Source: Eledone cirrhosa (lineage: Eukaryota). Taken from it: a stretch of 64,000 nt of DNA. This document shows positions 8,897-60,223 of this stretch, piece by piece (the stretch's first letter is position 1; the number at the start of each line of letters is the position of its first letter). Both the position numbers and the translations under genes were made by a program. Location: assembly GCA_964016885.1 (NCBI GenBank), contig OZ024743.1, positions 69,068,001 to 69,132,000 of the forward strand, read 5' to 3'. Below the pieces are notes generated by a model. It did no database searches, was not told the DNA's origin, and worked only from the letters and a program-made list of their open reading frames with translations.

Positions 8897-8902
<6 letters not shown>

Positions 8903-9025
8903 ATAGCCGTCGAAACGGCTTGAGCTCTGCCGTCGTGGTTAAACATTTTCCTATTACTCACGCTACTACCCTAAGTATTGAGTACTCTGGTGCGTTATGG
9001 TCCATCTAGTTCCTTACAACACTTC

Positions 9026-9030
<5 letters not shown>
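8897..9030 (+). mobile_element. 3'-end fragment of a related Naiad-like element
   Basis: TAGCCGTCGAAACGGCTTGAGCTC...GTATTGAGTACT..GGTGCGTTATGGTCCA, flanked by (TA)n. Confidence 0.75.
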
Positions 9031-13975: not shown

Positions 13976-13980
<5 letters not shown>

Positions 13981-15217
13981 TCTTAACAGGATCCAGCCTG
14001 AGATGGAGAAGAAGCTCAGGGACAACCAGAGCGGCTTCAGAGAGGGTAGATCAACCACCAGTCACATACCGATGCTGAGGAGGATATTAGAGGGAGCTAG
14101 AGCAAAGTGCCTTCCTGCAGTCATGGTTTCAATTGACTTTAGGAAGGCCTTTGACTCTGTGGACCGTTACTGCATGATGAAGATCTTACAGGCTTATGGA
14201 ATCCCCAAGAGGATAGTGGACCTGATATCACTGCTCTACACCAACACCAAAACCCAAGTCATTACACCTGATGGAATGACAGAGTTCTTTGAGATACTGG
14301 CTGGAGTGCTCCGGGGAGATACATTGGCTCCCTACCTTGTTATCATCGTAGTGGACTATTGTATGCGCCTTGCACTGGAGAAACACCAGGACTCTGGCTT
14401 TACTGTAGCACCGGCTCAGAGCAGGAGAGTTGGGGCGAAAAAGGTATCGGATGCTGAATTTGCCGACGACATAGTTTTGGTGACAAATACAGTGAAGGAG
14501 GCAGAGGATTTGATGCGGGAGGTTGAGACTGTGTCGATGAGTGTGGGGCTGAGAATGAATGAGACTAAAACAAAATATCTGGTAGAGAATGTTGAGAAGT
14601 CAGAGGGGATCACTAATGTAGGCGGGAAGCCGCTAGAATTGGTTGAGAGCTTCCTGTATTTGGGAGCAAAGATTGGGAATACGGAAGATGATGTGGTTGA
14701 GAGAAAGAGCAAGGCCTGGGCGGCGTGCCACAGCTTGAGATCGGTGTGGAAGTCGGACCTTCGTAGAGACCTGAAAATCCGCTTCTTCATTGCTGTAGTG
14801 GAGTCTGTGCTGCTGTATGGGTCTGAGACTTGGACACTGACCAAGAAACTCACTCAGATGGTGGATGGGTGCTACACGAGAATGCTGAGGATGGCTCTGA
14901 ACATTAATCAGTAAACACTGAGGATGAAAAACCTAGAGCTGTATGGGAGCATCCCAAAAGTCAGCTCAAAAGTGACACAGAGTAGATTGAGGTTAGCTGG
15001 ACATGCTCACCGACATCCAGAGTTGATATTGCACTCAGTGCTCCTTTGGGAGCCCCTACATGGACACACTAGAAGAGGAAGACCAAGGTTAACGTATGTT
15101 GATGCCCTAAGGACAGACACTGATCTGTTGGAGACGCAGGACATGGCAGCGATAATGAGGGACAGAGACCGCTGGAGAGAACTCGTCCATGGATCTCGGG
15201 AATTTTACCCACCATAG
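13976..15217 (+). pseudogene. 5'-truncated RTE-like LINE reverse transcriptase
   Basis: QSGFR, IDFRKAFDSV, GVLRGDTLAP, FADDIVL, YLG, RGRPR; single in-frame TAA at 14912; inserted in (TA)n. Confidence 0.9.
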
Positions 15218-20770: not shown

Positions 20771-20837
20771 TATTTTATCTGATGAGGACGTATTGTTGAA
20801 CTTAACTCAGTACCTCTGAAATATGTATAATAAAATA
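20771..20837 (+). ncRNA. Hammerhead ribozyme, AUA site
   Basis: TATTTTAT-CTGATGA-stem II-GAAA-TATGTA-TA-ATAAAATA (8-bp stem I). Confidence 0.75.
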
Positions 20838-20878
20838 TACTTGATCACAAGAATATCTATTTTGTTAATATGTTGAAT

Positions 20879-26629: not shown

Positions 26630-26840
26630 TAGTAATAATAATAAATTAGAAGACTAAAATCCAAAGAGGGCTCGATAAGGATAAATATATATCAAATATA
26701 GAAGAACAATAGAGCAAATATTTATAAAAATAACAGATTAAAGTTTAAGCAAAGAATCGGTGCTTTCACCCTTTAAGATCCAGTTAAGGGTGAAAGCAGC
26801 GATTCTTTGCTTAAACTTTAAACTGTTATTTTAATAAATA
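26630..26840. mobile_element. Short fold-back of the 18741 HHR family with a left tail
   Basis: Inverted arms meet at ~26775-26782, within the HHR stem II/core region. Confidence 0.7.
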
Positions 26841-27992: not shown

Positions 27993-29137
27993 TCAATGGT
28001 GATGTGGATAGGCTATACTTCTCACGCAAGGAAGGTGGCCGGGGTCTAAAATCAATATTAACAACATATGAGACCCGGATAGTAACACTGAAGCAACACC
28101 TTCAACAGAGGAAAAAGGTTGGCAACCATCTTGCCCAGGTTTATGACCATGAAAAAAGAAATATCATTAGAATAGCGACTGATCTGGAGGAGAGATATGG
28201 AATAAATCCTGATATAAATCTCTCACCCAGAGAAATCGGAAGATCCTATTCAATGTTCAAACAAGATAAAAAAATTGACCAATTTACAGAAAAAGTTGTG
28301 CATGGATACTTGAGGCGTAAAACACAGACCATATAGGGGATAAACCACTCAAAAAGCCTGGCATGGAGTTCCGACAAGTTTATGACATCACACCTTGAGG
28401 GATATCTCTATACAATACAGGAACAAGAACTCCCTACCAAATATCTGCTGCACAAAATAGGAGGGCCAGCAGCTGACAATAAATGTAGGCTATGTAAAAC
28501 AAAGATCGAAGATGTAAGCCACATTGTTGCCAGCTGCGAAAGAATGTCATCTCGCTACTACCTCCCCATGAGACACGATGGGATAGCTAGAACCATCTGG
28601 AACGCACTTCGAAAAACAAAATTAACAACAAACGAGGAGGAATATATTGAGACAGATGGCACTAAGGAATACTGGTGGAACCTGAAAATAAAAACTGCCA
28701 CCAAATTAAAGCACAACCGGCCTGATATTGTAGTTTGGGACCACACATTGAAAACGTGTTCTGTTGTGGAGATCAGCTGCCCACTTGATGTAAACGTTGT
28801 CAGAAAAATACAGGAGAAGGAGGACATCTACGGACCATTGATGAGGAGTTTACAAATCCAGTATCCAAGATACACCTTTAGCTTCATACCCATCATTATT
28901 GGTGCTACGGGTTATATACCAACCCGCTTGGACCAAAGTATGACTGAACTTGGATTTGCGGACAAAAAGCGCAGCTCCCTAATTCATAGTCTACAAATGG
29001 CTGCGATAGCTGGCACCTTCAAAATTTGCAAAACATTCTTGCGATTCAAGGGATGACAATTTCTTTTCTTTTACAACCTCGCCACCAGGAAGGTGGCTGG
29101 TCAAAAAGATATACTCGAAATTAAGAGAAAGAGAAAA
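27993..29137 (+). mobile_element. 5'-truncated Dong/R4-clade LINE with restriction-like endonuclease
   Basis: DVDRLY..RKEGGRGL, CRLC..HIVASC zinc knuckle, RHD, RPDIV..EISCP, K..Y; one in-frame TAG at 28334; sits in (TACA)n. Confidence 0.85.
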
Positions 29138-29884: not shown

Positions 29885-30011
29885 GAGAGAATAGTGAGTG
29901 TGTAACACTCCACTTATCAAATAGGCAGTATATGGTTAGCTCAATGTCGGAGGACAGAGCCGTAATACAATTAACAACAAAGAGCGCTTAGAACATAGGT
30001 ATATCTTTAAT

Positions 30012-30057
30012 TGCTAACAGTGTTTCGTCCACACTAGAAGTGGGACTCTTCAGAGCA
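30012..30057 (-). ncRNA. Hammerhead ribozyme
   Basis: Reverse complement: TGCT-CTGAAGA-GTCC CAC ttcta GTG T GGAC-GAAA-C act G-TT-AGCA. Confidence 0.75.
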
Positions 30058-32184
30058 TAAAGAGTAAATACATAGTATACAAGCATTGACAAAGCCAAAA
30101 CAGAAGAATATATGTGGGGATACCATAAGTTGGGAGGAGTTTAAAGAGTAAAGTAAAAGGAGTAAAATAAGAAAAGAGTAAAATAAAAATAAAAATAAAA
30201 ATAAAAATAAAAATAAAAATAAAAATAAAAATAAAAATAAAAATAAAAATAAAAATAAAATTAAAAATAAAATAAAAATGTTATCTCTCACAGTTGGGCA
30301 GGGTTCCGTTAACATACAGCTACATACAAGTATACGCATAAGCATGAGCACCCGCATGCACCTACACACAAGCACCCGTATGCAACACATACAGTATACA
30401 CTAATACAAATAACATATCATAGACGCATGGGCACAAGTTAAGAGATAGAGATAGATAAAAAATAGATAAGAGGTAGATAAAAAATAGATAAAAAATAGA
30501 TAAAAAATAGATAAAAGATAAAAAATAAAATAAAATAAAATAAAATAAAATAAAATAAAATAAAATAAAGTAAAGTAAAATATACACCAGAAGATAAATA
30601 AAACAATACACCAAAAAAAAATGGAGTAAAATATACACCATAAAGGAAGGTGTGGGTAAAGATAAGACTGGCAAATGCATAAGCTATCACGCTATGTTCA
30701 ACAAGTGATATACGTACAACATATAAAATACACAAAAATATATACAAAAATATATATAAAAAATATATATAAAAGAGACGTATATATAAGGATATATATA
30801 TATATACACATATCAGTCCAAGTAATGCATATTTATAAAAATGTAACCGGGGTAAATAGATGTAATAAGGGTAATCAAGATGGTAATTATTAGGGCATGT
30901 AATAATAATATTATTATATAAATCCTAAGGTGACACTAGTGTTGACTCATGGTGATATATGGAATATATCAGGAGCACACGAACGCCTTAGGTGTTGTAG
31001 TTAGCCGCAGTTCCACAATAGAGTGTTCGAATGAGATTTTTTATGAACAGATGCTATGTCCGCACTAGATTGAGTGGACCATTACAATGCAATGGAAACA
31101 TCATGCGGCTATTGTGGAACTGCGGCTAACTACAACACCTAAGGCGTTCGTGTGCTCCTGATATATTCCATATATCACCATGAGTCAACACTAGTGTCAC
31201 CTTAGGATTTACATAATAATATTATTATTACATGCCCTAATAATTACCATCTTGATTACCCTTATTACATCTTTTTACCCCGGTTACATTTTTATAAATA
31301 TGCATTACTTGGACTGATATGTGTATATATATATATATATATCCTTATATATACGTCTCTTTTATATATATTTTTTATATATATTTTTGTATATATTTTT
31401 GTGTATTTTATATGTTGTACGTATATCACTTGTTGAACATAGCTTGATAGCTTATGCATTTGCCAGTCTTATCTTTACCCACACCTTCCTTTATGGTGTA
31501 TATTTTACTCCATTTTTTTTGGTGTATTGTTTTATTTATCTTCTAGTGTATATTTTACTTTACTTTATTTTATTTTATTTTATTTTATTTTATTTTATTT
31601 TTTATCTTTTATCTATTTTTTATCTATTTTTCATCTATTCCTTATCTATTTTTATCTATTTTTTATCTATTTTTTATCTATTTTTTACCTATTTTTTATC
31701 TATTTTTTATCTATTTTTTATCTATTTTTTATCTATTTTTTATCTATTTTTTATCTATTTTTTATCTATTTTTTATCTATTTTTTATCTACCTCTTATCT
31801 ATTTTTTATCTATCTCTATCTCTTAACTTGTGCCCATCCGTCTATGATATGTTATTTGTATTAGTGTATACTGTATGTGTTGCATACGGGTGCTTGTGTG
31901 TAGGTGCATGCGGGTGCTCATGCTTATGCGTATACTTGTATGTATCTGTATGTTAACGGAACCCTGCCCAACTGTGAGTGATAACATTTTTATTTTTATT
32001 TTTATTTTTATTTTTATTTTTATTTTTATTTTTATTTTTATTTTTATTTTTATTTTTATTTTACTCTTTTCTTATTTTACTCCTTTTACTTTACTCTTTA
32101 AACACCTCCCAACTTATGGTATCCCCACATATATTCTTCTGTTTTGGCTTTGTCAATGCTTGTATACTATGTATTTACTCTTTA

Positions 32185-32230
32185 TGCTCTGAAGAGTCCC
32201 ACTTCTAGTGTGGACGAAACACTGTTAGCA
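32185..32230 (+). ncRNA. Hammerhead ribozyme
   Basis: Same sequence as 30012-30057, on the plus strand. Confidence 0.75.
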
Positions 32231-32270
32231 ATTAAAGATATACCTATGTTCTAAGCGCTCTTTGTTGTTA

Positions 32271-32326
<56 letters not shown>

Positions 32327-32463
32327 CAAAAGGGATTTTCAATTTGTTGGTAAATCTACAAATATAAATGTTTATAACTTTATGCAAAACACTCGACAGC
32401 TTTTCTGGAGTATAATATTCAATGAAATTAAATAAATGGAAACTATATTTATAAAACCATATT

Positions 32464-32526
32464 TATTCTATTATATATATATTTCAAGGTCATTAAAACT
32501 TTGGTACGCTCTCATCAGATAAAATA
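32464..32526 (-). ncRNA. Hammerhead ribozyme with (TA)n stem III
   Basis: Reverse complement: TATTTTAT-CTGATGA-GAG...CTT-GAAA-TATATATA-TA-ATAGAATA. Confidence 0.65.
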
Positions 32527-32756
32527 CAAAGTTTGTTTTATAAATATTGACATAACCAGGAAAGAATAACTCAACGGTCAACTTAACTAGAGAAAATTTA
32601 CCTAGTATTTATAAGAGTCTGTTGAAATCGACTAGACTACTCGCTGACAGGCACCAATCACAAACTTTCTGCCTTGACTATTAGCCACGTGCTGATTCTT
32701 AGCCATTTGAGTTCGTTTCTGGCAGGGATCATGTAATAAAAATTTTTGTCCAATTG

Positions 32757-32846
32757 AGTTATCTCTGATGATTTCCAAACTCGTTCATTTATCAAGGAAC
32801 GGATATATCCCAAAATGGAATGAAACCGTAATATGTATGGTTAACT
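32757..32846 (+). ncRNA. Decayed hammerhead
   Basis: CTGATGA-TTTCCA...TGGAAT-GAAA-CCGTA atatg TATGG-T; 3' strand of stem I apparently deleted. Confidence 0.4.
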
Positions 32847-33933
32847 ATATGTCTAGTAAATTTCTACAGGCTATCAGAAATACTAGGTAAATTTTCTGTA
32901 GCTATGTGTCGCGGATAAAAAGCTAAATCATTTATCTATTGTTTCTGCATAAGTATATTTTAAACTTATAGCCTCGTTTAAAGGATTTTTTGTGTGGTTG
33001 ATTTGTGCTGATTGGGAGAAGAAATACTGTATATATGTTATCTAATGATTCTCGGGGAGAGTAATATCAGGGTCTCATAGATTCAATACTATGTGAGATA
33101 ATTATGTAGGATGGAACCTTTACTGTGAAAATATGGTCGTATATGTGGAGTCGTGGGTTAAGGAAGACCTCTTAGAAACAACCGCACTGCAGGTCAATTT
33201 AAGAATGCCAGCATTTCAGACAGGAATACCAAGATATATATATATAAAAACAATCACCACCTCAGTCAACACTAAGGTCACTGAATCATTTAACCCTATC
33301 CCACGAAAAGCTTGCCTTTATCATTATTAACAGTGACTCTCTTACTACTACACCTGCTTGCCATCTCCTTCTGCTTAACCCACCCCTTCTCCGTCCTCCC
33401 CTTCCTTACCATAGCCCTGGTATTGCTACCAAACCTATCCTCTGTCGTTCTCTTTCTTCTACTTCGTCGTCTTCTTCTCCTTCGCCTACTTCTTCTTCTC
33501 TCCCTCCTCACTTCTTACCTTCTTCCTATCCTTCCCCATATCACCCCACTACTACAACTACAGTCGAAGCCAACAACTTAAACTACTACGACTACTGTTG
33601 GTCAATACTAACAGAGAACGAAAGAAAACTACGCACAAACATGTAAATATTACTCCCCAAATATGCATGAAAAAACTAAAAGATTTTTTTTCTCCATTTT
33701 ATTATTATTATTATTATTAATATGCAATTTAACTGCACTATACACTTCCGACGTTGAAAAAGCATATAAAGCTGAAACCGGTACACAATTAAATGCGGAA
33801 ATCACTACTTTGTAAATAAATATGTTAATGTTATAGTGAAAAAATACCTCTAGCATATCCTACTGTGTTTTTTTCCTTTTTACTATTTGTTAGTATATAT
33901 ATATATATATATATATATATAGGAACCAGTAAG

Positions 33934-34027
33934 ACCCCGACAGCTGAGCTCAAGCCGTTTCGACGGCTAATTCTGGACTAAATGAACATTTATCCTGGTA
34001 TTAAAATAGCCGATCTTCTCAAGGGGT
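33934..34027 (-). ncRNA. Hammerhead ribozyme U3-A8 variant, inverted copy
   Basis: Reverse complement of 38232-38325. Confidence 0.8.
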
Positions 34028-35125
34028 AATTCCATATATGGTCAAAGTGATTGTCAAAAATCAGTAGTAATTCTGTGGTTGCAAATTAGTAGGGGAGATG
34101 GTGGCTAAACCTGCCAGTAGGAGAAAGAGGGGAGGGGGTGGAGTAGACCCAATCAAGCGTTGGTAGTGCCAGCTACAGCTGGGCATGAGGTCAAAGAAGA
34201 TACAGGGGAGGGGGAGGGGGAGGAAGTCGGAACGGTAGGTAGAACAATGGGGGGTAAAAATAGGAAAGAAAAAATACTGAGAGTGAAGAAAAGCAAATAA
34301 GTGTAAAGAAAAAATTAAATTCTACGACCTAGGTGTCAGGCTATTGTTAGGCGAGAATAAAATAAAGAAAGAAAGAAAGAAGTAAATAAATAAATAAATA
34401 AATAAATAAGGAAATAAGTAAAAGAACTAGGTGGGACGAATTAGGCAAGGACCCTTTTAAGAGGTATAAGTACGTAAATGATACGGTGACTGGTCAACAA
34501 AAGGGGCCAAAATACTAAAGAGACTACCACGAAATAAACAATAAAGGTTTCCATCCCGGGCCAGCAACGACCCAGTGCAGCAAAGTGAACTTGTACGACA
34601 TAATAATTCTGAGTCCCGGGAAAAATATATACTAATGCTAACTCTAAAAGATCTAAAACAAGCTACATGAAAGTTCGTACGAAATAAAGGTAGAATACGG
34701 GGAAATAAGTTCAGAATCCACCCCGCCCAGAAGAAAAGCGAAGCAAGAAATACTGAAACGAAAAAATAAGGCATAAGTGCCACTAAGAAATATAGAGGGC
34801 ACAGAGAATAGTGGGAGCGGTCGGAAAAGGGGGGCAAGTATCCGGGGTCTAAGCCAACTGCTATAAAGGGCGGAGTCCGCCAAATCTATCAAAGACTAGG
34901 GGAGGGGGGAGTGGGGGTACTAAGGCTACATGGGGCCAAAGGGCAGCCTCGGGTGGGCGAGAAAAGACGCCGACAAAGGAGAAGAGCTGGGGTAGAAGGA
35001 CAAAGGAGAGAGGGGGGAAGGTAATAAAGGATGCGATAAAAGAATACAAAGAAGATCTTACGTCTTCCTTGGCAAGCAGGGGTTACCCATTGCAAAATCG
35101 GCAACTGGGGTGTTATAGCCCTAGT

Positions 35126-35879
35126 CTACCCCCCCGGGTCATTATGGGGTTTGAGGGCGAGGTAAGTCCTACGCAATCTATGTTTACATGCAGTAACCAG
35201 TTCATCTTTCTTGTTTAGGAGTTGGTCCGTCGAAAACAGCATTTGTAAAGTTTCCTCCGAGCATAAATTGCACGGACGGCGTCCTCCCGTGTAAGAATTG
35301 GCTCTGGACAGTAATCTCCAAGTGAGATCATAGGTGATGTTGTTGTCCTTGAGGTCCCATATGTGGCCCGAAAGTGTAGTGGCGTGACGCCGGGCCGGGT
35401 TTCGGAAGGTATGTCTATGTTGGTATAGCCGGGTCTTGAAGTCACATGCGGTAAGTCCTATATAGGCTTTGTTGGAGGTATCCGTCCTCACGTTGCACTG
35501 GTAGATCACATTACGGTCTCTGCATCTATTGTCGAGTGGGCAAATAGATCTATCCGGGCAGTTACACCTCCTGGTCGGTTCTCCACTGCTATTTAGGTTA
35601 TTTCTGCCATCGGGGTTGAGTTTTTTGTTGTTAGAGGAGACGATGTTTTGTGCGAAGTTTGGTGTAGTGCTGTAAGAGAGTTTGATGGTATTTTTGTTAA
35701 TTATGTTGTGGTAGCGGTGTTGTAATGGGAAGTGTTTTTCAATGAGCCTAAAGAATAGTTTCCCGATGGGAGTAGTCACCTCTGCGTTGTGGGGAGGATT
35801 GAACCATGTTACATTGCGTGAGCGGCGGTGTCTCCTGCTGGTTCCGCTAATGGGATCTGGACAGTAGGATATTTCCTCC
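35126..35879 (-). pseudogene. Inverted 3' part of the PLE ORF (linker + GIY-YIG)
   Basis: Reverse-complement copy from EEISYC... to the stop codon; carries the full-copy alleles (I, Q). Confidence 0.9.
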
Positions 35880-37133
35880 TCTAAATGGATAAAAAGAGCT
35901 CCCGACTCACCCTTCGACGTCAGCATGGGCGCCACGGATTCGGCGGAGGTCACTGATCTTATAGGATTATTCCTAATAGCCAAACTCACTGATATGTTTC
36001 CTGCATTCGGTGGTGGATTGTACCGTGATGATGGGCTCCTTACCCTTAAAGGGTACAACCCCAGTAGTACAGATCGGGTCCGGAAACAATTAATCAGATT
36101 CTTCCGCGACTGGGGATTTAAAATAACCCTACAAACGTCCCTGACCCGAGTAAACTTCCTGGACGTAACCCTCGACCTCGAAAACGACCTGTACTACCCA
36201 TACAGAAACCCTAATGACAATCTGCACTACATCCACCGCCGATCAAACCATCCTAGGAACATCACAAACAACCTGGTCAAAAACATCTCCCTCCGCATAT
36301 CCCGTTTGTCAGCTAATGAGCGGATATTCGATGAACATGCGCCTTATTACAACCAGGCCCTCAAGCGGAGTGGTTTCCGGGAGGAAATATCCTACTGTCC
36401 AGATCCCATTAGCGGAACCAGCAGGAGACACCGCCGCTCACGCAATGTAACATGGTTCAATCCTCCCCACAACGCAGAGGTGACTACTCCCATCGGGAAA
36501 CTATTCTTTAGGCTCTTTGAAAAACACTTCCCATTACAACACCGCTACCACAACATAATTAACAAAAATACCATCAAACTCTCTTACAGCACTACACCAA
36601 ACTTCGCACAAAACATCGTCTCCTCTAACAACAAAAAACTCAACCCCGATGGCAGAAATAACCTAAATAGCAGTGGAGAACCGACCAGGAGGTGTAACTG
36701 CCCGGATAGATCTATTTGCCCACTCGACAATAGATGCAGAGACCGTAATGTGATCTACCAGTGCAACGTGAGGACGGATACCTCCAACAAAGCCTATATA
36801 GGACTTACCGCATGTGACTTCAAGACCCGGCTATACCTACATAGACATACCTTCCGAAACCCGGCCCGGCGTCACGCCACTACACTTTCGGGCCACATAT
36901 GGGACCTCAAGGACAACAACATCACCTATGATCTCACTTGGAGATTACTGTCCAGAGCCAATTCTTACACGGGAGGACGCCGTCCGTGCAATTTATGCTC
37001 GGAGGAAACTTTACAAATGCTGTTTTCGACGGACCAACTCCTAAACAAGAAAGATGAACTGGTTACTGCATGTAAACATAGATTGCGTAGGACTTACCTC
37101 GCCCTCAAACCCCATAATGACCCGGGGGGGTAG
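35879..37133 (+). pseudogene. 5'-truncated tandem copy of the PLE ORF
   Basis: Matches 39410-40664 except for about 3 amino-acid changes (K>N, I>F, Q>L). Confidence 0.9.
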
Positions 37134-38231
37134 ACTAGGGCTATAACACCCCAGTTGCCGATTTTGCAATGGGTAACCCCTGCTTGCCAAGGAAGACGTA
37201 AGATCTTCTTTGTATTCTTTTATCGCATCCTTTATTACCTTCCCCCCTCTCTCCTTTGTCCTTCTACCCCAGCTCTTCTCCTTTGTCGGCGTCTTTTCTC
37301 GCCCACCCGAGGCTGCCCTTTGGCCCCATGTAGCCTTAGTACCCCCACTCCCCCCTCCCCTAGTCTTTGATAGATTTGGCGGACTCCGCCCTTTATAGCA
37401 GTTGGCTTAGACCCCGGATACTTGCCCCCCTTTTCCGACCGCTCCCACTATTCTCTGTGCCCTCTATATTTCTTAGTGGCACTTATGCCTTATTTTTTCG
37501 TTTCAGTATTTCTTGCTTCGCTTTTCTTCTGGGCGGGGTGGATTCTGAACTTATTTCCCCGTATTCTACCTTTATTTCGTACGAACTTTCATGTAGCTTG
37601 TTTTAGATCTTTTAGAGTTAGCATTAGTATATATTTTTCCCGGGACTCAGAATTATTATGTCGTACAAGTTCACTTTGCTGCACTGGGTCGTTGCTGGCC
37701 CGGGATGGAAACCTTTATTGTTTATTTCGTGGTAGTCTCTTTAGTATTTTGGCCCCTTTTGTTGACCAGTCACCGTATCATTTACGTACTTATACCTCTT
37801 AAAAGGGTCCTTGCCTAATTCGTCCCACCTAGTTCTTTTACTTATTTCCTTATTTATTTATTTATTTATTTATTTACTTCTTTCTTTCTTTCTTTATTTT
37901 ATTCTCGCCTAACAATAGCCTGACACCTAGGTCGTAGAATTTAATTTTTTCTTTACACTTATTTGCTTTTCTTCACTCTCAGTATTTTTTCTTTCCTATT
38001 TTTACCCCCCATTGTTCTACCTACCGTTCCGACTTCCTCCCCCTCCCCCTCCCCTGTATCTTCTTTGACCTCATGCCCAGCTGTAGCTGGCACTACCAAC
38101 GCTTGATTGGGTCTACTCCACCCCCTCCCCTCTTTCTCCTACTGGCAGGTTTAGCCACCATCTCCCCTACTAATTTGCAACCACAGAATTACTACTGATT
38201 TTTGACAATCACTTTGACCATATATGGAATT

Positions 38232-38325
38232 ACCCCTTGAGAAGATCGGCTATTTTAATACCAGGATAAATGTTCATTTAGTCCAGAATTAGCCGTCGAA
38301 ACGGCTTGAGCTCAGCTGTCGGGGT
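38232..38325 (+). ncRNA. Type I hammerhead ribozyme, U3-A8 core variant (PLE terminal repeat)
   Basis: Stem I ACCCC/GGGGT; core TTGAGAA; stem II GA(T)CGGCTA/TAGCCGTC; GAAA; stem III CGGCT/AGCTG with palindromic TGAGCTCA; GUC site, cut predicted after 38320. Confidence 0.8.
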
Positions 38326-38363
38326 CTTACTGGTTCCTATTACCCACTCTACTACCTCAAGTA

Positions 38364-40664
38364 TTGAGTACTTTGGTGCGTTATGGTCCACCTGGTTCCT
38401 TACCACATTTCCTTCGTTATCTAGCTCCTACTCCCGTAGTAGAGCACTTTCCGACCCTACCACGCCGTATCCAGACTTTTCCGCTAAGCTCAATTCATTT
38501 CACCCGCACCATGCGAAAACACAACATTGACTTCTCTACCAAGAACATCCCAATCCCACCGAAAAAACTTTACCTTCGGATGCTCACGCAAAAAATTGAT
38601 CTATTTGCGAAAAGACTTAGATGGAGAACTTTTTTCTATGACAGATATTGCGACAACCAAGACTTCGGCACCAAGGAGAGATTCGGATTTATTACCTACA
38701 AATCTCCGCCCCTGAACCCCTTGCTCGCACCCTTCGAGAATGACCTCTTCCAACTGGTCAAGAATATTAAATTTAAACCCAGACACAACCGATTCCTACA
38801 AAAACTCCGTAGCAACTTAACAGAGTATGATAACACAAATGACATCATGGTGCATTCGGATAAAACTGGGAACCTATACTTTGTCAACCCTGACAGATAC
38901 CACACACTGATCAGGAGCAGCCTAAACTCCACCTATAAAAAGGCCAACCACTCTTGCATCGAGGACATAAATCGAGATGGACAACAAATCACCTCCAGCC
39001 TCGGGGTCGCCGACCGCACGGAACCTCTAGACCCACGGACACCATACTTCACACTGAAGGACCATAAATCCGATTTTGACCGTAAACCCTCCATCAGGCT
39101 TATTAACCCAACGAAGTCCGACATAGGGAGAATCAGCAAAAAAATCCTAGACCGCGTGATACCAAAAGTCAAGCAACACACCCGACTTAGCCTATGGATC
39201 AACACCCAGGAAGTAATCTCCTGGTTCAGCAATATGGAGGATAAACGAGAAACTAAATTCATACAGTTCGACATAGAGAGCTACTATGCTTCAATCACCT
39301 TACCGCTACTTACTGCCGCCTTGGACTTCGCCGAAACACTCGTGCCCATCACCGACCAGGAAAGAAAAATCATCCTCCACGCCAGGAAGACAGTCTTACT
39401 CTTTGACGACTCTAAATGGATAAAAAGAGCTCCCGACTCACCCTTCGACGTCAGCATGGGCGCCACGGATTCGGCGGAGGTCACTGATCTTATAGGATTA
39501 TTCCTAATAGCCAAACTCACTGATATGTTTCCTGCATTCGGTGGTGGATTGTACCGTGATGATGGGCTCCTTACCCTTAAAGGGTACAACCCCAGTAGTA
39601 CAGATCGGGTCCGGAAACAATTAATCAGATTCTTCCGCGACTGGGGATTTAAAATAACCCTACAAACGTCCCTGACCCGAGTAAACTTCCTGGACGTAAC
39701 CCTCGACCTCGAAAACGACCTGTACTACCCATACAGGAAACCTAATGACAATCTGCACTACATCCACCGCCGATCAAACCATCCTAGGAACATCACAAAC
39801 AACCTGGTCAAAAACATCTCCCTCCGCATATCCCGTTTGTCAGCTAATGAGCGGATATTCGATGAACATGCGCCTTATTACAACCAGGCCCTCAAGCGGA
39901 GTGGTTTCCGGGAGGAAATATCCTACTGTCCAGATCCCATTAGCGGAACCAGCAGGAGACACCGCCGCTCACGCAATGTAACATGGTTCAATCCTCCCCA
40001 CAACGCAGAGGTGACTACTCCCATCGGGAAACTATTCTTTAGGCTCATTGAAAAACACTTCCCATTACAACACCGCTACCACAACATAATTAACAAAAAT
40101 ACCATCAAACTCTCTTACAGCACTACACCAAACTTCGCACAAAACATCGTCTCCTCTAACAACAAAAAACTCAACCCCGATGGCAGAAATAACCTAAATA
40201 GCAGTGGAGAACCGACCAGGAGGTGTAACTGCCCGGATAGATCTATTTGCCCACTCGACAATAGATGCAGAGACCGTAATGTGATCTACCAGTGCAACGT
40301 GAGGACGGATACCTCCAACAAAGCCTATATAGGACTTACCGCATGTGACTTCAAGACCCGGCTATACCAACATAGACATACCTTCCGAAACCCGGCCCGG
40401 CGTCACGCCACTACACTTTCGGGCCACATATGGGACCTCAAGGACAACAACATCACCTATGATCTCACTTGGAGATTACTGTCCAGAGCCAATTCTTACA
40501 CGGGAGGACGCCGTCCGTGCAATTTATGCTCGGAGGAAACTTTACAAATGCTGTTTTCGACGGACCAACTCCTAAACAAGAAAGATGAACTGGTTACTGC
40601 ATGTAAACATAGATTGCGTAGGACTTACCTCGCCCTCAAACCCCATAATGACCCGGGGGGGTAG
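38364..40664 (+). CDS. PLE polyprotein: reverse transcriptase + C-terminal GIY-YIG endonuclease (first ATG at 38511)
   Basis: Uninterrupted 766-codon frame. RT motifs QFDIESYY, MGA, GGLYRDDGL, VNFLDV. Linker CNCPDRSICP (CxCx5C). GIY-YIG motifs NVIYQC...YIGLT..FKTRLYQH and LLNKKDE. Confidence 0.95.
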   Translation: MSTLVRYGPPGSLPHFLRYLAPTPVVEHFPTLPRRIQTFPLSSIHFTRTMRKHNIDFSTKNIPIPPKKLYLRMLTQKIDLFAKRLRWRTFFYDRYCDNQDFGTKERFGFITYKSPPLNPLLAPFENDLFQLVKNIKFKPRHNRFLQKLRSNLTEYDNTNDIMVHSDKTGNLYFVNPDRYHTLIRSSLNSTYKKANHSCIEDINRDGQQITSSLGVADRTEPLDPRTPYFTLKDHKSDFDRKPSIRLINPTKSDIGRISKKILDRVIPKVKQHTRLSLWINTQEVISWFSNMEDKRETKFIQFDIESYYASITLPLLTAALDFAETLVPITDQERKIILHARKTVLLFDDSKWIKRAPDSPFDVSMGATDSAEVTDLIGLFLIAKLTDMFPAFGGGLYRDDGLLTLKGYNPSSTDRVRKQLIRFFRDWGFKITLQTSLTRVNFLDVTLDLENDLYYPYRKPNDNLHYIHRRSNHPRNITNNLVKNISLRISRLSANERIFDEHAPYYNQALKRSGFREEISYCPDPISGTSRRHRRSRNVTWFNPPHNAEVTTPIGKLFFRLIEKHFPLQHRYHNIINKNTIKLSYSTTPNFAQNIVSSNNKKLNPDGRNNLNSSGEPTRRCNCPDRSICPLDNRCRDRNVIYQCNVRTDTSNKAYIGLTACDFKTRLYQHRHTFRNPARRHATTLSGHIWDLKDNNITYDLTWRLLSRANSYTGGRRPCNLCSEETLQMLFSTDQLLNKKDELVTACKHRLRRTYLALKPHNDPGG

Positions 40665-41762
40665 ACTAGGGCTATAACACCCCAGTTGCCGATTTTGCAA
40701 TGGGTAACCCCTGCTTGCCAAGGAAGACGTAAGATCTTCTTTGTATTCTTTTATCGCATCCTTTATTACCTTCCCCCCTCTCTCCTTTGTCCTTCTACCC
40801 CAGCTCTTCTCCTTTGTCGGCGTCTTTTCTCGCCCACCCGAGGCTGCCCTTTGGCCCCATGTAGCCTTAGTACCCCCACTCCCCCCTCCCCTAGTCTTTG
40901 ATAGATTTGGCGGACTCCGCCCTTTATAGCAGTTGGCTTAGACCCCGGATACTTGCCCCCCTTTTCCGACCGCTCCCACTATTCTCTGTGCCCTCTATAT
41001 TTCTTAGTGGCACTTATGCCTTATTTTTTCGTTTCAGTATTTCTTGCTTCGCTTTTCTTCTGGGCGGGGTGGATTCTGAACTTATTTCCCCGTATTCTAC
41101 CTTTATTTCGTACGAACTTTCATGTAGCTTGTTTTAGATCTTTTAGAGTTAGCATTAGTATATATTTTTCCCGGGACTCAGAATTATTATGTCGTACAAG
41201 TTCACTTTGCTGCACTGGGTCGTTGCTGGCCCGGGATGGAAACCTTTATTGTTTATTTCGTGGTAGTCTCTTTAGTATTTTGGCCCCTTTTGTTGACCAG
41301 TCACCGTATCATTTACGTACTTATACCTCTTAAAAGGGTCCTTGCCTAATTCGTCCCACCTAGTTCTTTTACTTATTTCCTTATTTATTTATTTATTTAT
41401 TTATTTACTTCTTTCTTTCTTTCTTTATTTTATTCTCGCCTAACAATAGCCTGACACCTAGGTCGTAGAATTTAATTTTTTCTTTACACTTATTTGCTTT
41501 TCTTCACTCTCAGTATTTTTTCTTTCCTATTTTTACCCCCCATTGTTCTACCTACCGTTCCGACTTCCTCCCCCTCCCCCTCCCCTGTATCTTCTTTGAC
41601 CTCATGCCCAGCTGTAGCTGGCACTACCAACGCTTGATTGGGTCTACTCCACCCCCTCCCCTCTTTCTCCTACTGGCAGGTTTAGCCACCATCTCCCCTA
41701 CTAATTTGCAACCACAGAATTACTACTGATTTTTGACAATCACTTTGACCATATATGGAATT

Positions 41763-41856
41763 ACCCCTTGAGAAGATCGGCTATTTTAATACCAGGATAA
41801 ATGTTCATTTAGTCCAGAATTAGCCGTCGAAACGGCTTGAGCTCAGCTGTCGGGGT
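41763..41856 (+). ncRNA. Hammerhead ribozyme U3-A8 variant, 3' terminal copy
   Basis: Same sequence as 38232-38325; cut predicted after 41851. Confidence 0.8.
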
Positions 41857-41947
41857 CTTACTGGTTCCTATTACCCACTCTACTACCTCAAGTATTGAGT
41901 ACTTTGGTGCGTTATGGTCCACCTGGTTCCTTACCACATTTCCTTCG

Positions 41948-42002
<55 letters not shown>

Positions 42003-42290
42003 TAAATTAGCGAGAATTCTATTTCGGGTTAGGAATTAATGAAAAACAACTTCCGAGATGTGTGGCAAGCGCTCAATGATTCATATGAACCAGAGCTACA
42101 ACATATGTTAAAGGCCAAACACACTGAGACGATGGTTAAGCAATCATCCGCACAGACAGCCAAAGAAACGACCAAGTAATTTGGGTCAAACAAATAAAAA
42201 TATATGTGATATATATATATATATGTGTGTGTGTGTGTATATATAGTGACGAAACATAAGTCAATTGCATGAACTCATAATCTTTTATTT

Positions 42291-42346
42291 ACTGCTATAT
42301 ATATTTCGATGATAGCCATTGAATGGATATGACCTCATCAGGCAGT
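42291..42346 (-). ncRNA. Hammerhead ribozyme with (TA)n stem III
   Basis: Reverse complement: ACTGC-CTGATGA-GGT..CCATT c AATGG..ATC-GAAA-TATATA-TA-GCAGT. Confidence 0.75.
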
Positions 42347-42414
42347 TAGTCAGTTCTTAGATATGCCAGTTCTGTGGTTATGGTGTTGATGGTTTCAGAG
42401 CCTTGGGACATATG

Positions 42415-42446
<32 letters not shown>

Positions 42447-42523
42447 TACACACACACACATATATATATATATATTATTCAAAATATTAATAAATGAAAA
42501 CTATTCTCATAACCCAAAATATA

Positions 42524-42586
42524 TATTTTATTATACATATTTAAAAGATACAATGGTGTTTCAGTACGTTTTCATCAGATAAAATA
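42524..42586 (-). ncRNA. Decayed hammerhead (TA-stem-III family)
   Basis: Reverse complement: TATTTTAT-CTGATGA...TAAA (G12 lost)-TATGTA-TA-ATAAAATA. Confidence 0.45.
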
Positions 42587-42808
42587 TATGAGAGATTGGA
42601 TATGAGACATACCGTCATGGTTTAGATTATTCAATTCCTGTAGTGGTTATATATATATTTACTCTTTTACCTGTTTCAGCCATCCGGCTGAGGCCATGCT
42701 GGGGCACTGCCCTTGGGTATATATATATATATTATGAAATACTACATTAATTTCTATATTTTCATTTATATATATATATATAAGTATATATACGTACATA
42801 CTCTTAGT

Positions 42809-43701
42809 AGAAATGAAATTTCGTTTCATTTTTCCATTTATCGTTTCGGTACCCCGGCCGACTAACTCACTCGATATGCAAATTAGGCTGCTCCACCGTT
42901 AATATGCATAGGGAAAGTATATACTTTCAGACGTTCAATCATCTGGCAGGAAGGTATACGTTGCTGACGGTAGCTAATAAGCTTGAAACTAGTTCCTTGT
43001 TCCTTTGTCAGTGTTGAACAAAAGGACAACGATGGTTGCTAAACACTGTACAGTTTAATTCGGGCTGTTTGTTTACAAACACACCGAGCATTATAATAAA
43101 TGTTCGGTAAATCCATACGTACATATATTTATGTGTGTGCATGTATGTATATATATATACATACTACTGTACGTCTGTATACATATATGTATGTACGTAT
43201 ACATATTTTATTTAATTAACAGCCGTTCTATCAGTGAGAAATGAAATTTCGTTTCATCTTTTCCATTTAACGTTGTCGGTGCGCCCGGCCGATTAATTCA
43301 CTCGATATGCAAATTAGGCTGCTCCACCGTTAATATGCATAAGGAAAGTATATACTTTCAGACGTTCAATCATCTGGCAGAAAGGTATACGATGCTGACG
43401 ATAGCTAATAAGCTTGAAACTAGTACATCGTTCCTTTTTCAGTGTTGAACAAAAGGGCAAGGATGGTTGCTAAACACTGTACGGTTTAATTCAGACTCTT
43501 TGTTTACAAACAAACCGAGCATTATAATAAATATTCGGTAAACACATACGTACATATATACATGTGAGTGCATGTATGTATATATATATACATACTACTG
43601 TACGTCTGTATACATATATGATATGTATGTACGTATACCTACTTACATTTAAGAAACAGCTGTACTAAGTGTGAGAAATGAAATTTCGTTTTATTTTTTC
43701 C

Positions 43702-43705
<4 letters not shown>
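42809..43705 (+). mobile_element. Tandem ~430-bp non-coding HHR repeats (retrozyme-like), ~2.1 units
   Basis: AGAAATGAAATTTCG recurs at 42809, 43237 and 43674; one HHR per unit (42958-43000 decayed, 43389-43431 intact). Confidence 0.8.
43389..43431 (+). ncRNA. Minimal type I hammerhead ribozyme
   Basis: ACGATG-CTGACGA-TAGCT aata AGCTT-GAAA-CTAG-TA-CATCGT; stem III is the palindrome ACTAGT. Confidence 0.8.
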
Positions 43706-43769
<64 letters not shown>

Positions 43770-44201
43770 TGACATACATACATAGATAATATTCTTACAC
43801 ATAATATAATAGATAATATTCTTACACATACATGTATAAAAACAAAACAGTCAATCCCTTACTCAACAAGTCTTAAAGCATATGAATAGGTGTTTGTATA
43901 TATGGGTGTCTGTGTGTGTGTACGCGTGTGAGTGTGTGCGTGGCTGTGTGTATGTGTGTGAGTGTGTATGCATATGCGCATGTGGTCTTTCAATTCCGTG
44001 CAACAATAGCTATAACGCAGTTGTATAGAAATCAAATTGCGAAAAACCAATTAGATCATTGGACTGCCCTCTCACATTCACCCCCCCCTCTCTCTCTTTC
44101 TTCTATATCTAACTTCTGACTCTCTTTCTCTCTATTAACTCTACCGTCTCACACATTCTTTCTCGCTCTCTGACTCTCTCTACTATATCTGCCCTCGCCC
44201 C

Positions 44202-44238
<37 letters not shown>

Positions 44239-44697
44239 TATATCTGCCTTCTCACTCTCTCTCTCTGACACTCTTTACTATATCTTCTCTCTCACTACTG
44301 TATCTTCCCTTTCACTCTCTCTATCTCTCTCTTTCACTGCATCACTCTCTACTATATCCTCTCACTCTCTCTGTTTCTCTCTACTAAGTTTTCGAACTCT
44401 TCATCAATTGTTCTTAAATGATTGCAGAGATACACTCACACATACATATAAACACATACATACATACTCATACACACATGGAAACATATATGCACTTAAA
44501 TACATGCATACATATATACACATACACACATGCACACATATGTACACGTATACAAATAGATACATATATGCGTACATATTCATACACACACATATATATA
44601 CATGCATACATATATGCACTTATAAACCTGCATACATATACACACAAATATATACACTTATACACATGCATATATATATATATTAATACTATATGTA

Positions 44698-44772
<75 letters not shown>

Positions 44773-45137
44773 ATTTATATATATATATATATATGTATAT
44801 AAACAAACATTTTTACACATATATATATATATATACATATATATATCACAGGCACACGTACATACATACATACACATACTCATATGCACATACTCATGCA
44901 CACATACCCATGCATACATACACCCATATACAATGCACCAATTAGATCACCGGTCTCTCTCACTGTCTCTTTTCCACATCCTTTCCTTTTCTCTCTCTCT
45001 TTCTTTTCCTTTTATTTCTCACTTTTAAACATGTTTTTACCGACTTCGCCAGTAGACAGTAACACCATCAAGACCGCTTACGTGGGCAGCTCTCCAACTT
45101 CGCAACCAAATAGTTCATAACGGCGATAGCAGTAGTA

Positions 45138-45200
<63 letters not shown>

Positions 45201-45306
45201 TATCTGAGGCTGCAGGTAGTGGCTTGATATTCATTTCAACAAACTTTCCACAGTTAACTAACATCAATAACTGAGACTCAAAGAGTAATAACAATAATAA
45301 TAATGC

Positions 45307-46150
45307 TTTCTTTATTAACCACAAGGGTTTACACAAAGTAAGACATTAAGCACAGTACACGACAATACAGGACAATGCAGGACGGTACAAATAGGCGTTT
45401 CTGCGTGTAAAAAAACAAAGACAGAGGATGTAACAAAAAAAAGAAACAATGAAAAATTCCCCAATAGGGGGGGGGGGGAGACTTCCGAGGGCCATCTTGG
45501 AAAAAGACCATTAAAAGGAAGCCACAGTGACCCTGACTTCCAGGGCAAGTGCCCTCTCCCAGTTTGCCACCTTCAATTTACAGGCACATACTCAGAGTAA
45601 GCCCATTCACACGGGCCATTCTTTCCTCTCTTACCAATCTTTCAACAAAATGCTGGGAAGAGAGCACTTCCCTCTCTACCCTGATTTTCCTTTTTAAATG
45701 AAATTTGAAAAAGTTAATCAGGGCATCACCGAAGAGGTAAGTGCTCGTCTTCAGCCCTTTCAAACGCGTCCACTATTCTATCTCTTTCGCCATGGCCACC
45801 AGACAGAAAAAAATTACCTGCTCTTCCCGGCTAAAGGAGGAGTGCGGGGCAATCCTCACGAGTGCGTGTAGAACGGTTTCGTCGCCCAGCGAGTATCACG
45901 GACATGCCCGGCTGACGGCACTTCAATGCCTGTAGAGTTTATCCCGAATTGGCAAAGCTCCTCGGTAGCACTGCCAGGCTAGGGATTTCTGGAATTTGTC
46001 CATAGGCCCCGGCCCGAAAGTTCTTCCGAAGAGATTGGCTAGTTGATTTTCGTCGACGCCTAGAGTTTCCCCAAGTACGTCGTCGCTCTTTCCCTCCACT
46101 AATCTTCTATAGAACGCCAAGGTGGAGTTTCCACCGATAGAACGCCAAGG
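45307..46150 (-). mobile_element. Tx1/L1-like LINE 3' end
   Basis: LAWQCYRGALPIRDKL zf-RVT-like motif; 3' UTR ending in AATAAAG; (AAT)n flank. Confidence 0.7.
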
Positions 46151-54194: not shown

Positions 54195-55940
54195 CGTCAG
54201 TATAGTTGGTGACGTTGCCAACCTTTTTATGGTATGGAGGGAAAGGAGAATCAAAGATCTCCTTGATGCGAGCTCCATAGACCTCATCATGTACTCTCCT
54301 TACGTAGACGACATCAATATAGTAATAAGGACATCCCCACAAGAGAGTACTAACAAGTTTGATTTAGAACGTAGCACAATGGAAAGCATCCAGCAGATAG
54401 CTAATTCCATACACCTGAGTATAACTGTAACTAACGACTACCCTTCTAAACACCCTAACAATAGAGTATGTGTATTAGACACGGAACTCTGGATTAACAC
54501 TATAGACGAGAGAGTCCATATTCTCCACTCACACTATGCTAAACCCATGGCCTCCAAATACCTGATACTCAAAAACTCAGCAATGTCCAGTAGTGCTAAG
54601 TTTAATATCCTGAGCACAGAGTTGGTACGAGTGATGAAGAACGTGTCCCGCATGTGCGACCCAACATAAATGAAAAGACACATCCAACACTTCACCAACC
54701 GCATGCAGTTCTCTGGCTACAACAAAATGGACAGAATCAGAGTATACGAAGGAGCCACGGAGAAGTATAAGACTCTCATAGAACTGGACATGAAAGGAAT
54801 TTGCCCATTATACAGGAACAAATCATAGAATAGCTTAGATAGGACTAGACATAAGATAGGGAAAGCCACCTCATGGTACGACAAGCAGAGATACCCGAGC
54901 GTCATGTTTGTTGACGCTACCCCTGGAAGGAAATTAGCTAAACAGTGTAGAAAGGCCCTGAGAAAGACCTACTTAAAGATTAAGGTGGTAGAAAATCCAG
55001 GAACCACCATAAAATCCCTGGTCAGCAAAACCTACCCTTTTAAGAAAATCCACTGTACTAATAGGAAATGTATTATATGTAAAGTAAACCCCAGGATAAA
55101 CTGTAAAACTAGAAACGTAGTCTATAACATAAGATGTACAGAGGGTACTCTCAGAAACATGACAACAACATACATAGGCGAGACAGCTCGTAGCATTGGT
55201 GAAAGGATAGACCAAGACAGGGGGGAACTAAAAGGACGACAAAACGGTTCAGTACTATACGAACATACCAGACAACAACACGACGGTAACATAGACAACA
55301 TCGAAATTAGAATAATATCTAAACATAGAAATGACCCAGCAGATAGGCAAATCAGAGATGCCGGTGAAATAGAACTTAGAAGGCCGAGGCTAAACAGAAA
55401 GAATGAATGGAATAACAACAACACCCAAGCAAACAACACTGACCTAAGAGAAGTATAAATAAATAAATAAATACATACAGAAGCACAATAACAACAAACA
55501 CATATAAACACACTAGTAAACTAAGATAGAATACAATAACCAATACACAGTCACCCGACCATCAAACACACATCAAACAAAACACTATACACACACGCAA
55601 ACGCATGCGCAGAGTAGACAAAAAATATATATATAAATAAATAAACAGACTATATAAAGATGGCGTTGGCATGCAATACAACGGGAGGAAACATAGTAGC
55701 CCCACTGACGATGTTGCAGATGTGCAACGAAAGAACTTTGTTAGAGACTATATATATGAGTTTTTGTCTATATTGTATCTGTATTTTTGACCAGTCAAAA
55801 GTAACATTGAGGACCGAATAAATTAAATTAACCGATATAAAAGATACAGAAGCGAAAAGAAACCAAACAGTGAGTGTGTTCTGTTATTAATTCTGGCAAT
55901 ATTATTACATAAATATGACCCTCCCCAAGTATAACAATAT
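54193..55940 (+). mobile_element. Decayed 5'-truncated Penelope-like element (second family)
   Basis: YVDDI RT motif, VLDTELW, and GIY-YIG NVVYNIRC...YIGETARSIGER, with in-frame stops; 3' UTR has an HHR-like motif at ~55700. Confidence 0.85.
55700..55750 (+). ncRNA. Hammerhead-like motif in the PLE 3' UTR
   Basis: CTGACGA-T-GTTGCA gatg TGCAAC-GAAA; stems I and III decayed. Confidence 0.5.
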
Positions 55941-57849: not shown

Positions 57850-58793
57850 GTCCTTTTACAACACCATCTGGACGCCATATACAAATGGGCTGAGGACAAC
57901 AACATGCAGTTTAATGCTGGAAACTTTCAAGCCCTATAATACCTAACTGCTAAAACAAATTCAATTCAACACAGCTACACAGGACAAGGTGGGATCGAAA
58001 TCCCCGTGACGAAATTGATACGAGTCCCAGGGATAGTCATGAGCGACGATGCATCTTTTTCTTCACATATCATGAGGGTGGCGACATTGTGCAGATTACT
58101 TGCTGGCTGGATCTTGAGGACTTTCCGGACAAGAGACCGAAAAACCATGTTGATACTATGGAGGACATTTGTCCTAATCCGACTGGACTAATGCTCCCAA
58201 CTGTGGTCACCCCATAGTATCAAACTAACCACGGAGCTTGGGGCAATCCAACGAAGCTACACCAAGAATATTACCACGATGGAGATGAGCTAATGAGCTA
58301 CTGGGAGAGGCTAAAAGAACTGAACCTCTACTCGTTGGAACGAAGACGGGAGAGATACGCAGTGATATACATATGGAAGATGCTGGAGGGACTAGCACCA
58401 AACTTCGGCATTGAGAGCTGGACCAACCCCCGCACAGAATGTCAATGTGTGGTGCCAAAGATCGCGTCTTTCAAATCTATAAGGAGCAGATATTGCAATA
58501 GTCTGGGGTTCAAAGGCCTTCAACTCTTCAACAAGCTGCCGAGAAATTTGAGAGATCTGCATGGTGTGGACGTGGATGTTTTCAAGAAAAATCTTGACAC
58601 TCTGCTATCCAGGATCCCGGATGAGCCCACAGCACGGTACAAAGGTAACCTAAGGGCAGCAGCAACGAACTCCCTCTTACACCAATGGCCAGCGGAGAAG
58701 GCTGGAGATAGAATGTGTAGCAACAAGGACGGTTCCCCAGCATGGCCTCAGCATGATGGCTGGAATAGGTAAAAGAGTAAAAGAGTAAAAGAA
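57850..58793 (+). mobile_element. Decayed CR1/L2-like LINE 3' part
   Basis: WAEDNNMQFN, YWERLKELNLYSLERRR, FKKNLD; (GTAAAAGA)n tail. Its 3' tip recurs at 42659-42715 (-). Confidence 0.8.
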
Positions 58794-59956: not shown

Positions 59957-60000
<44 letters not shown>

Positions 60001-60004
<4 letters not shown>

Positions 60005-60177
60005 AACGAGTAGGACCCCGACGGCTGAGCTCAAGCCGTTTCGATGGCTAATTCTGGACGAAACGGCTTGAGCTCAGCCGTCAGAGTCCTACTCGTTTCT
60101 ATTACCCACTATACGACCCTAAGTATTGAGTACTTTGGTGCGTTATGGTCCATCTGGTTCCTTACCACATCTCTTCG

Positions 60178-60180
<3 letters not shown>
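60001..60180. mobile_element. Miniature inverted insertion related to the Naiad-like element
   Basis: Minus piece 60001-60059 + plus piece 60059-60180, both matching the 41820-41950 end; embedded in (TA)n. Confidence 0.8.

Positions 60181-60223
<43 letters not shown>

Follow-up and report, generated by a model that had tools for sequence, protein, structure and literature searches.

Hydra-clade Penelope-like elements have been described as carrying an RWK motif, DKT in place of DKG and a CxCx5C linker, as lacking GxKF/Y and CCHH, and as having CxxC and CxH around the E and N of the endonuclease (Craig et al. 2021, PMC8557442). In supplementary File S2 of that study, 26/26 Hydra rows have a CUGANGA hammerhead core at the same place near the 3'-end. 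Naiads carry their endonuclease at the N-terminus and have no canonical hammerheads. Natural covariation of core positions 3 and 8, including U3-A8, has been reported (Perreault et al. 2011, PMC3088659). About 1,300 Cercyon-related hammerheads of Schistosoma carry U3-A8, with long stems II, a palindromic helix III and low activity in vitro (Cervera & de la Pena 2014, PMC4209133). An internal promoter with an Inr is described for Penelope (PMC2377424), and in Poseidon of Anolis two internal start sites of the reverse transcriptase (RT) define a tail (Frangieh et al. 2024, PMC11167929). The headline of an earlier note on this DNA, a non-canonical hammerhead with the core UUGAGAA, concerns a known core variant, because U3-A8 has already appeared in two of these reports (PMC3088659, PMC4209133).

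Element identity and hammerhead motif

The window, i.e. the whole 64,000-nucleotide stretch of Eledone cirrhosa DNA that was analysed, contains an insertion with the following parts.

33919..35879, minus strand: inverted arm, 5'-truncated, stopping at the equivalent of 38340, with a third hammerhead at 33934-34027
35879..38420, plus strand: upstream tandem unit, 5'-truncated, with 4 mismatches to the full unit
38341..38420, plus strand: 80-nt 'tail' between the element ends 38340 and 38420, both of which abut (TA)n in genomic copies
38421..41950, plus strand: full element unit, period 3531, ending in (TA)n
38511..40664, plus strand: intact 717-aa ORF of the Hydra clade, RT and C-terminal GIY-YIG
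41763..41856, plus strand: second hammerhead copy, in the 3' terminal repeat

These parts form one insertion, with a tandem period of 3531 at 4 mismatches and a 1961-nt inverted arm that is 100% identical. At both 38340 and 38420 the element adjoins (TA)n, within the window as well as at sampled loci. Exact head-to-tail arrays of 4-5 young units with an inverted arm were also seen at C1:437198048-437213199 and C1:91473243-91493732.

The single ORF has the RT first and GIY-YIG at its C-terminus, as judged from motifs and homolog alignment. Its motifs are RWR at residue 37, DKT at 117, YRDD at 348, CxCx5C at 572 (CNCPDRSIC), IY..AYIG at 590-608 with YIG at 606, CxxC at 670 (CNLC) and CxH at 698 (CKH). 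GxKF/Y and Cx2-5CxxC (CCHH) were searched for in the ORF and neither is present. The domain calls rest on motifs and homologs because a Pfam search and a PDB sequence search with the ORF gave no match. Among 8,000 scored sequences 2,049 homologs had E<=1e-10; the 16 aligned ones have mostly RWK/RWR and DKT, and the Hydra signatures are common to them. The published Hydra family sequences are alike to the ORF by eye (supplement of Craig et al. 2021). The RT-endonuclease at 38511-40664 has more than 2,000 homologs, yet Hydra proteins are invisible to the Pfam and PDB libraries. All 83/83 scored ORF matches of the young family in the 3.0-Gb genome are 99-100% identical. The earlier note had called the element intact and Penelope-like, which the 717-aa ORF bears out, and Naiad-like, which was wrong: the endonuclease is C-terminal and the signatures RWR, DKT, CxCx5C, CxxC and CxH are those of Hydra. 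A Naiad identity was rejected, as an N-terminal GIY-YIG, a CxC domain and DKA are all missing. Judged by its sequence, the element is a young, high-copy Hydra-clade Penelope-like retrotransposon.

Upstream of the ORF lies the motif that gave rise to this study. Its parts, all on the plus strand, are as follows.

38232..38325: type I hammerhead motif with U3-A8 core, upstream of the intact ORF, from sequence and fold
38232-38236 / 38321-38325: stem I, from the fold
38237..38243: core strand U3 U4 G5 A6 G7 A8 A9 (UUGAGAA), U3 being 38237 and A8 38242
38244..38297: long stem II with G10.1-C11.1, a CGGCUA/UAGCCG helix, a variable internal loop and an inner hairpin
38244-38252 / 38290-38297: outer stem II strands
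38264-38271 / 38276-38284: inner hairpin of stem II
38278..38283: initiator-like TTAGTC (A at 38280), where most genomic copies end; putative transcription start
38298-38300: GAA strand
38301..38320: stem III, its loop self-complementary, and the GUC site; cleavage predicted after C38320
38301-38306 / 38314-38319: stem III strands, followed by C17 at 38320

Over the 94 nt the linear order is ACCCC, UUGAGAA, stem II, GAA, stem III, C and GGGGU. When 38232-38325 was folded, the three-way junction was both the MFE and the centroid structure, at an ordinary folding energy (z -0.82). As in a type I hammerhead, three helices surround U4 G5 A6, A9, G12 A13 A14, A15.1-U16.1 and H17. A Watson-Crick 3-8 pair is present in the window copy and in the young family, a C3.A8 mismatch or a U3.G8 wobble in many older copies (see below). 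When a 3531-nt unit was shuffled with its dinucleotides preserved, 0/600 shuffles contained a NUGANNA hammerhead whose stems had at least 5/7/5 pairs. The earlier note had described sequence and fold correctly, so that its hammerhead with a UUGAGAA core is real, and its statement that CUGANGA searches would miss the motif was borne out, Rfam giving no hammerhead match at E<=1 within 30000-46000 either. The three copies on which it relied, at 33934-34027 (minus strand), 38232 and 41763, are indeed identical, but all belong to one insertion and their identity is thus no evidence of conservation. The motif is a genuine, homologous type I hammerhead that lies in a terminal repeat of the intact Penelope-like element, with cleavage as a prediction.

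A single letter in the stem II loop, at 38256, sets the window copy apart from most young copies. The 8-nt palindrome TGAGCTCA of loop III is found in the younger subfamilies only, and GAGCTC alone is kept in older ones. A word at 38251-38258 (TATTTAAA in most young copies), which we label TATA-like, lies 29 nt upstream of the initiator-like A and varies between subfamilies.

Other repeats are also present in the window. Canonical CUGANGA minimal hammerheads with an (AU)n palindromic stem III, at 20771-20838 (plus strand) and with minus-strand cores near 42341, 32518 and 18160, come from another abundant repeat family. ORF fragments at 13976-14914, 28382-29056, 54904-55458 and 58293-58772 resemble other retroelements; their motifs are presumably those of an RT, a restriction-like endonuclease, GIY-YIG and a LINE C-terminus. 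Nested long inverted repeats of 190-400 nt at 30000-32242 possibly represent another inverted insertion.

Core states across the family

Exact genome-wide patterns, which undercount old copies, found 2,237 copies with the young U3-A8 core and, with the seven core letters left free, 3,532 copies of older subfamilies. The mismatch C3.A8 is present in 1,270 older copies genome-wide and in 17 of the young context, some of which are one-letter deletions. G8 was found genome-wide in 49 copies: 39 U3.G8, 9 canonical C3-G8 and 1 with A3. The first 100 of the 3,532 older copies were inspected by eye and comprised 62 U3-A8, 34 C3.A8, 2 U3.G8 and 2 otherwise damaged cores. Among these 100, U4, A6 and A9 are each constant in 100, G5 and A8 in 98, while position 3 is U64/C35/G1 and position 7 is G67/U16/A14/C3. 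An alternative core register, with N7 deleted and G7 read as G8, was rejected because position 7 takes four letters.

BLAST with one U3.G8 copy led to a diverged subfamily that is 86-92% alike; this subfamily, the oldest, has U3.G8 in 25/33 cores and U3-A8 in 4/33. The C3.A8 copies bear their own ORF pieces, mostly 77-97% identical. Three of the four pyrimidine-purine 3-8 states have been amplified and the canonical C3-G8 has not. The earlier note had taken the core for a functional compensated variant. U3-A8 is indeed a natural core state, but ORF-bearing C3.A8 and U3.G8 subfamilies were amplified too. A C3.A8 core would be expected to cleave much more slowly; for U3-A8, U3.G8 and C3.A8 cores, no cleavage rates were found in the literature accessible for searching. 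The idea that A-to-I editing of A8 might rescue C3.A8 was rejected as unsupported, G8 copies being rare. Short copies of older subfamilies lie in (TA)n of the window at 8898-9028 and 60000-60181; they start inside stem II, and in their stem III a G-C pair takes the place of the G.U of the young family.

A tree built from 42 ORF rows, with 5 young rows left out and a sister family as the root, gave the order U3.G8, U3-A8, C3.A8, U3-A8, with ORFs in all groups. In this tree U3.G8 forms a star and C3.A8 a grade over several starred nodes, followed by a 100/99 U3-A8 clade that includes the young family; a second tree, of the repeat region and with the core masked, is consistent with this shape. 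The rooting depends on a single distant outgroup, and the bootstrap had not settled. Without the oldest group the ORF tree roots at the young end, which we take as long-branch attraction, and within-group distances are non-monotonic (0.095-0.106 in the oldest, 0.019 in the young and 0.106-0.141 in two small C3.A8 groups). Following the tree order, the present U3-A8 would be a restored Watson-Crick pair, C.A having gone back to U-A. Because of this reversion, residual selection for cleavage or fold is likely.

Within the stems 92.5% of cells are paired (81/86 distinct full copies), far above slid controls, the 5' strands of stem I and outer stem II being partly fixed by the search patterns. The inner hairpin of stem II is the least constant part (89%). 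The earlier note had made its claim depend on stem covariation among family copies; the signal did not exceed that of shuffles, both-sided changes occurring in 2 pairs versus 1.7 expected (81 copies). Since compensatory covariation stays at shuffle level, the conservation could partly reflect needs of a promoter or of protein binding.

The sister Hydra family, whose protein shares 53-54% amino-acid identity with the ORF described here, has a hammerhead at the corresponding place in at least 18,169 copies; the stems differ from those described here, and stem III is long. Among the first 100 of the 18,169 matches its core is CAGAAGA (U4A) in 94, and A4 is present in 100. It shows the same two-end tail geometry. 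In the window, fragments of it lie near 26771-26790 and 53885 (minus strand).

The fixed U4A core of the sister family, the amplification of three non-canonical states and the covariation result would all suit a catalytically dead relic, in which the fold is kept as a promoter or as a platform on which the RT-endonuclease binds or primes, and the 3-8 pair drifts neutrally; so would the coincidence of copy ends with initiator-like words inside both hammerheads (see below). We nevertheless regard this explanation as quite improbable. A free N7 between fixed neighbours is the catalytic pattern of hammerheads, the stems are largely paired, and the architecture is retained in the sister family, whose stems are wholly different. 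A same-site reversion that restores a pair is also unlikely by drift over ~0.05-0.1 changes per site.

Copy ends and a putative transcription start

The tail occurs 35,090 times genome-wide, and a single old form of the motif's right half 17,258 times; tail and right half are several times more frequent than the left half. Copy ends were determined from the first 100 listed tail places, of which 5 were unfetched and 2, both long copies, were skipped. In the remaining 93, ends fell at 38268-38290 in 54, at 38291-38316 in 12, at 38317-38325 in 10, further right in 11 and at 38264 in 1; 5/93 passed the whole motif (7/95 with the skipped two). The farthest reach of either arm peaked at 38281 (18/79) and lay within 38275-38287 in 70/79. 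This peak is the A of TTAGTC/TCAGTC, inside stem II and away from the cut site. We take TTAGTC/TCAGTC to be an initiator-like word, the motif being short; a downstream promoter element was sought by eye, and none was seen. Contigs of three sequencing runs of unrecorded kind, which carry neither strand nor end information, show only that depth steps at 38279 and that contigs end at 38340/38420. The 10/93 ends at 38317-38325 could be cleavage products or could result from slippage between two GCCGUCG repeats.

Longer copies behave differently. Among 40 ORF-bearing loci, some of which share an insertion and about half of which were chosen by an open frame already past 38321, 29 run upstream into the previous repeat, and 27/27 that reach 38290 pass the 38280 site. 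The GUC-G junction is intact in all long copies. In the sister family 8/29 arms that were met by chance have their start -5 to 0 from C3, at the A of a TTAGT word (TTAGTT) that lies in stem I.

The pile-up at 38280 might instead be a stall of the RT on stem II or on a bound protein during a first passage, with no transcription start at this place. This is conceivable, given that the ends spread over 38275-38287 and that the site lies within a hairpin strand, but we consider it somewhat doubtful. The RT would have met the stronger stems III, I and outer II earlier and passed them, its second passage is unhindered (27/27), and the pile-up of the sister family, likewise at a TTAGT word, is located in stem I. 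A start site, as deduced from the copy ends, would explain the pile-ups in both families better than a structural stall. In a literature search that was light on subscription papers, no prior report was found of C3.A8 subfamilies or of a start site inside a Hydra hammerhead.

A proposed attenuated ribozyme and its relation to known systems

The motif is likely a conserved but attenuated ribozyme that overlaps a promoter, with cleavage as a prediction. Transcription would start at the initiator-like site inside stem II, at ~38280. With such a start, the RNA would begin with the right half of the ribozyme alone. Internal priming, at 38340 and 38420, would follow once the RT-endonuclease has nicked (TA)n. 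When primed within the 5' repeat, synthesis could reach only the RNA start, giving tens of thousands of copies of 60-140 nt, and priming on multimeric or circular RNA may read through intact hammerheads and so yield long and tandem copies. With these priming sites 20 and 100 nt beyond GUC on its downstream side, fast cutting would sever the template from the primer. A weak core would be tolerated, and the canonical pair may never have been re-amplified.

On balance we lean towards U3-A8 as the core of a slow, attenuated ribozyme, with most copying independent of its cutting, because older relatives multiplied with a wobble or a mismatch at 3-8. The fold and its absence from shuffles, the Hydra signatures and the constancy of U4, G5, A6 and A9 (98-100%) around a free N7 argue for a ribozyme. 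The counts (U3-A8 2,237, C3.A8 1,270, C3-G8 9), the tree order and the ORF pieces of C3.A8 copies speak for tolerance of a weak core. The clustering of ends at 38268-38290, the 27/27 second passages and the sister family, with its fixed U4A core and a pile-up at the TTAGTT A although this lies in stem I, also speak for this reading. In Anolis, hammerhead mutations left insertion in vitro unaffected, uncut RNA was the main template, and the RT started at two internal sites (Frangieh et al. 2024, PMC11167929). Against the attenuated-ribozyme reading stand the covariation at shuffle level and the ends at 38317-38325, which could mean real cleavage. The tree root with its distant outgroup, unsettled bootstrap, reversal and irregular distances, and the shortness of the initiator-like motif weigh in the same direction.

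Several of the same observations would also be expected of a fully functional compensated ribozyme, in which U3-A8 cuts efficiently and cleavage is required, e.g. for unit-length circles: a perfect junction geometry with a stem III that is stable in the monomer, a core that stays fixed while N7 varies, the return from C3 to U3 on the trunk, the Watson-Crick pair of the youngest, still intact family, and exact tandem repetition of as many as 5 units. Perreault et al., citing earlier work, call U3-A8 active in vitro (PMC3088659). We hold full function to be unlikely, as 1,270 C3.A8 copies and a U3.G8 subfamily were amplified with their own ORFs, C3-G8 is found in 9 copies only, the GUC-G junction is intact in all long copies, and the anole element inserts in vitro without cleavage (PMC11167929).

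A further model would turn the split of the motif into a gate on RNA length. With the promoter in loop II, a transcript would start with the substrate half, and whole-unit RNAs would gain the enzyme half of the next repeat, pair via the palindromic stem III and be cut at both ends, yielding 3531-nt circles for rolling reverse transcription. The weakened 3-8 pair (U.G, U-A, C.A, never C-G; U4A in the sister family) would offset the monomer-stable stem III. This model was suggested by the predicted co-fold of a full copy with a 38280-38325 half, which is favoured (-50.2 versus -34.1 kcal/mol for separate folds) and places GUC in a hammerhead. Two full copies are predicted to co-fold as a double hammerhead (-63.7 versus 2 x -23.6 kcal/mol). 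We judge the length-gated model quite unlikely.

The U3-A8 core alone is not new; it is the family history together with the map of ends that makes this a useful test system. It combines an intact, very young family, a sister family whose core is defective in another way, and copy ends that serve as a natural 5' map, and it offers a natural allelic series (U.G, U-A, C.A, U-A) in one successful lineage. Thereby it can be tested whether the ribozyme is required, attenuated or incidental. In addition, CUGANGA, Rfam and Pfam searches miss this family with its tens of thousands of copies.

The element shares with the Hydra clade the RWK-type motif and DKT, CxCx5C, the missing CCHH, CxxC/CxH, (TA)n targets, tandem and inverted structure and a hammerhead ~100 nt from the 3'-end (PMC8557442). 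It differs in its unit of 3.5 kb, as compared with mostly <3 kb in the published families, and whereas the published rows have CUGANGA and short stems II and III, it combines U3-A8 with a stem II domain of 54 nt, a stem III of 6 bp and a tail of 80 nt (PMC8557442). Hydra hammerheads are thus not universally canonical; in the accessible text of Craig et al. (2021, PMC8557442) the canonical CUGANGA is descriptive rather than clade-defining. With the Naiad clade the element has (TA)n targeting and tandem and inverted copies in common, but Naiad's N-terminal endonuclease, CxC domain, DKA motif and lack of canonical hammerheads do not fit it.

Outside the Hydra clade, the Cercyon hammerheads of Schistosoma mansoni are similar in U3-A8, long stem II, G10.1-C11.1, palindromic stem/loop III and a predicted dimer (PMC4209133). 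They belong to another clade and host and have no stable helix III, and the accessible text of that report describes neither an ordered series of core states nor C3.A8 subfamilies. The U3-A8 cases of Perreault et al. (PMC3088659) apparently lie outside retrotransposons, and mismatched or wobble 3-8 pairs are unlisted in the section on core variation. Poseidon of Anolis resembles the element in a tail defined by internal start sites (putative here), in AT-rich targets and in the read-through, here likewise putative, of an uncut hammerhead; there, in contrast, a canonical C3-G8 core overlaps the ORF start and cleavage is protein-assisted (PMC11167929).
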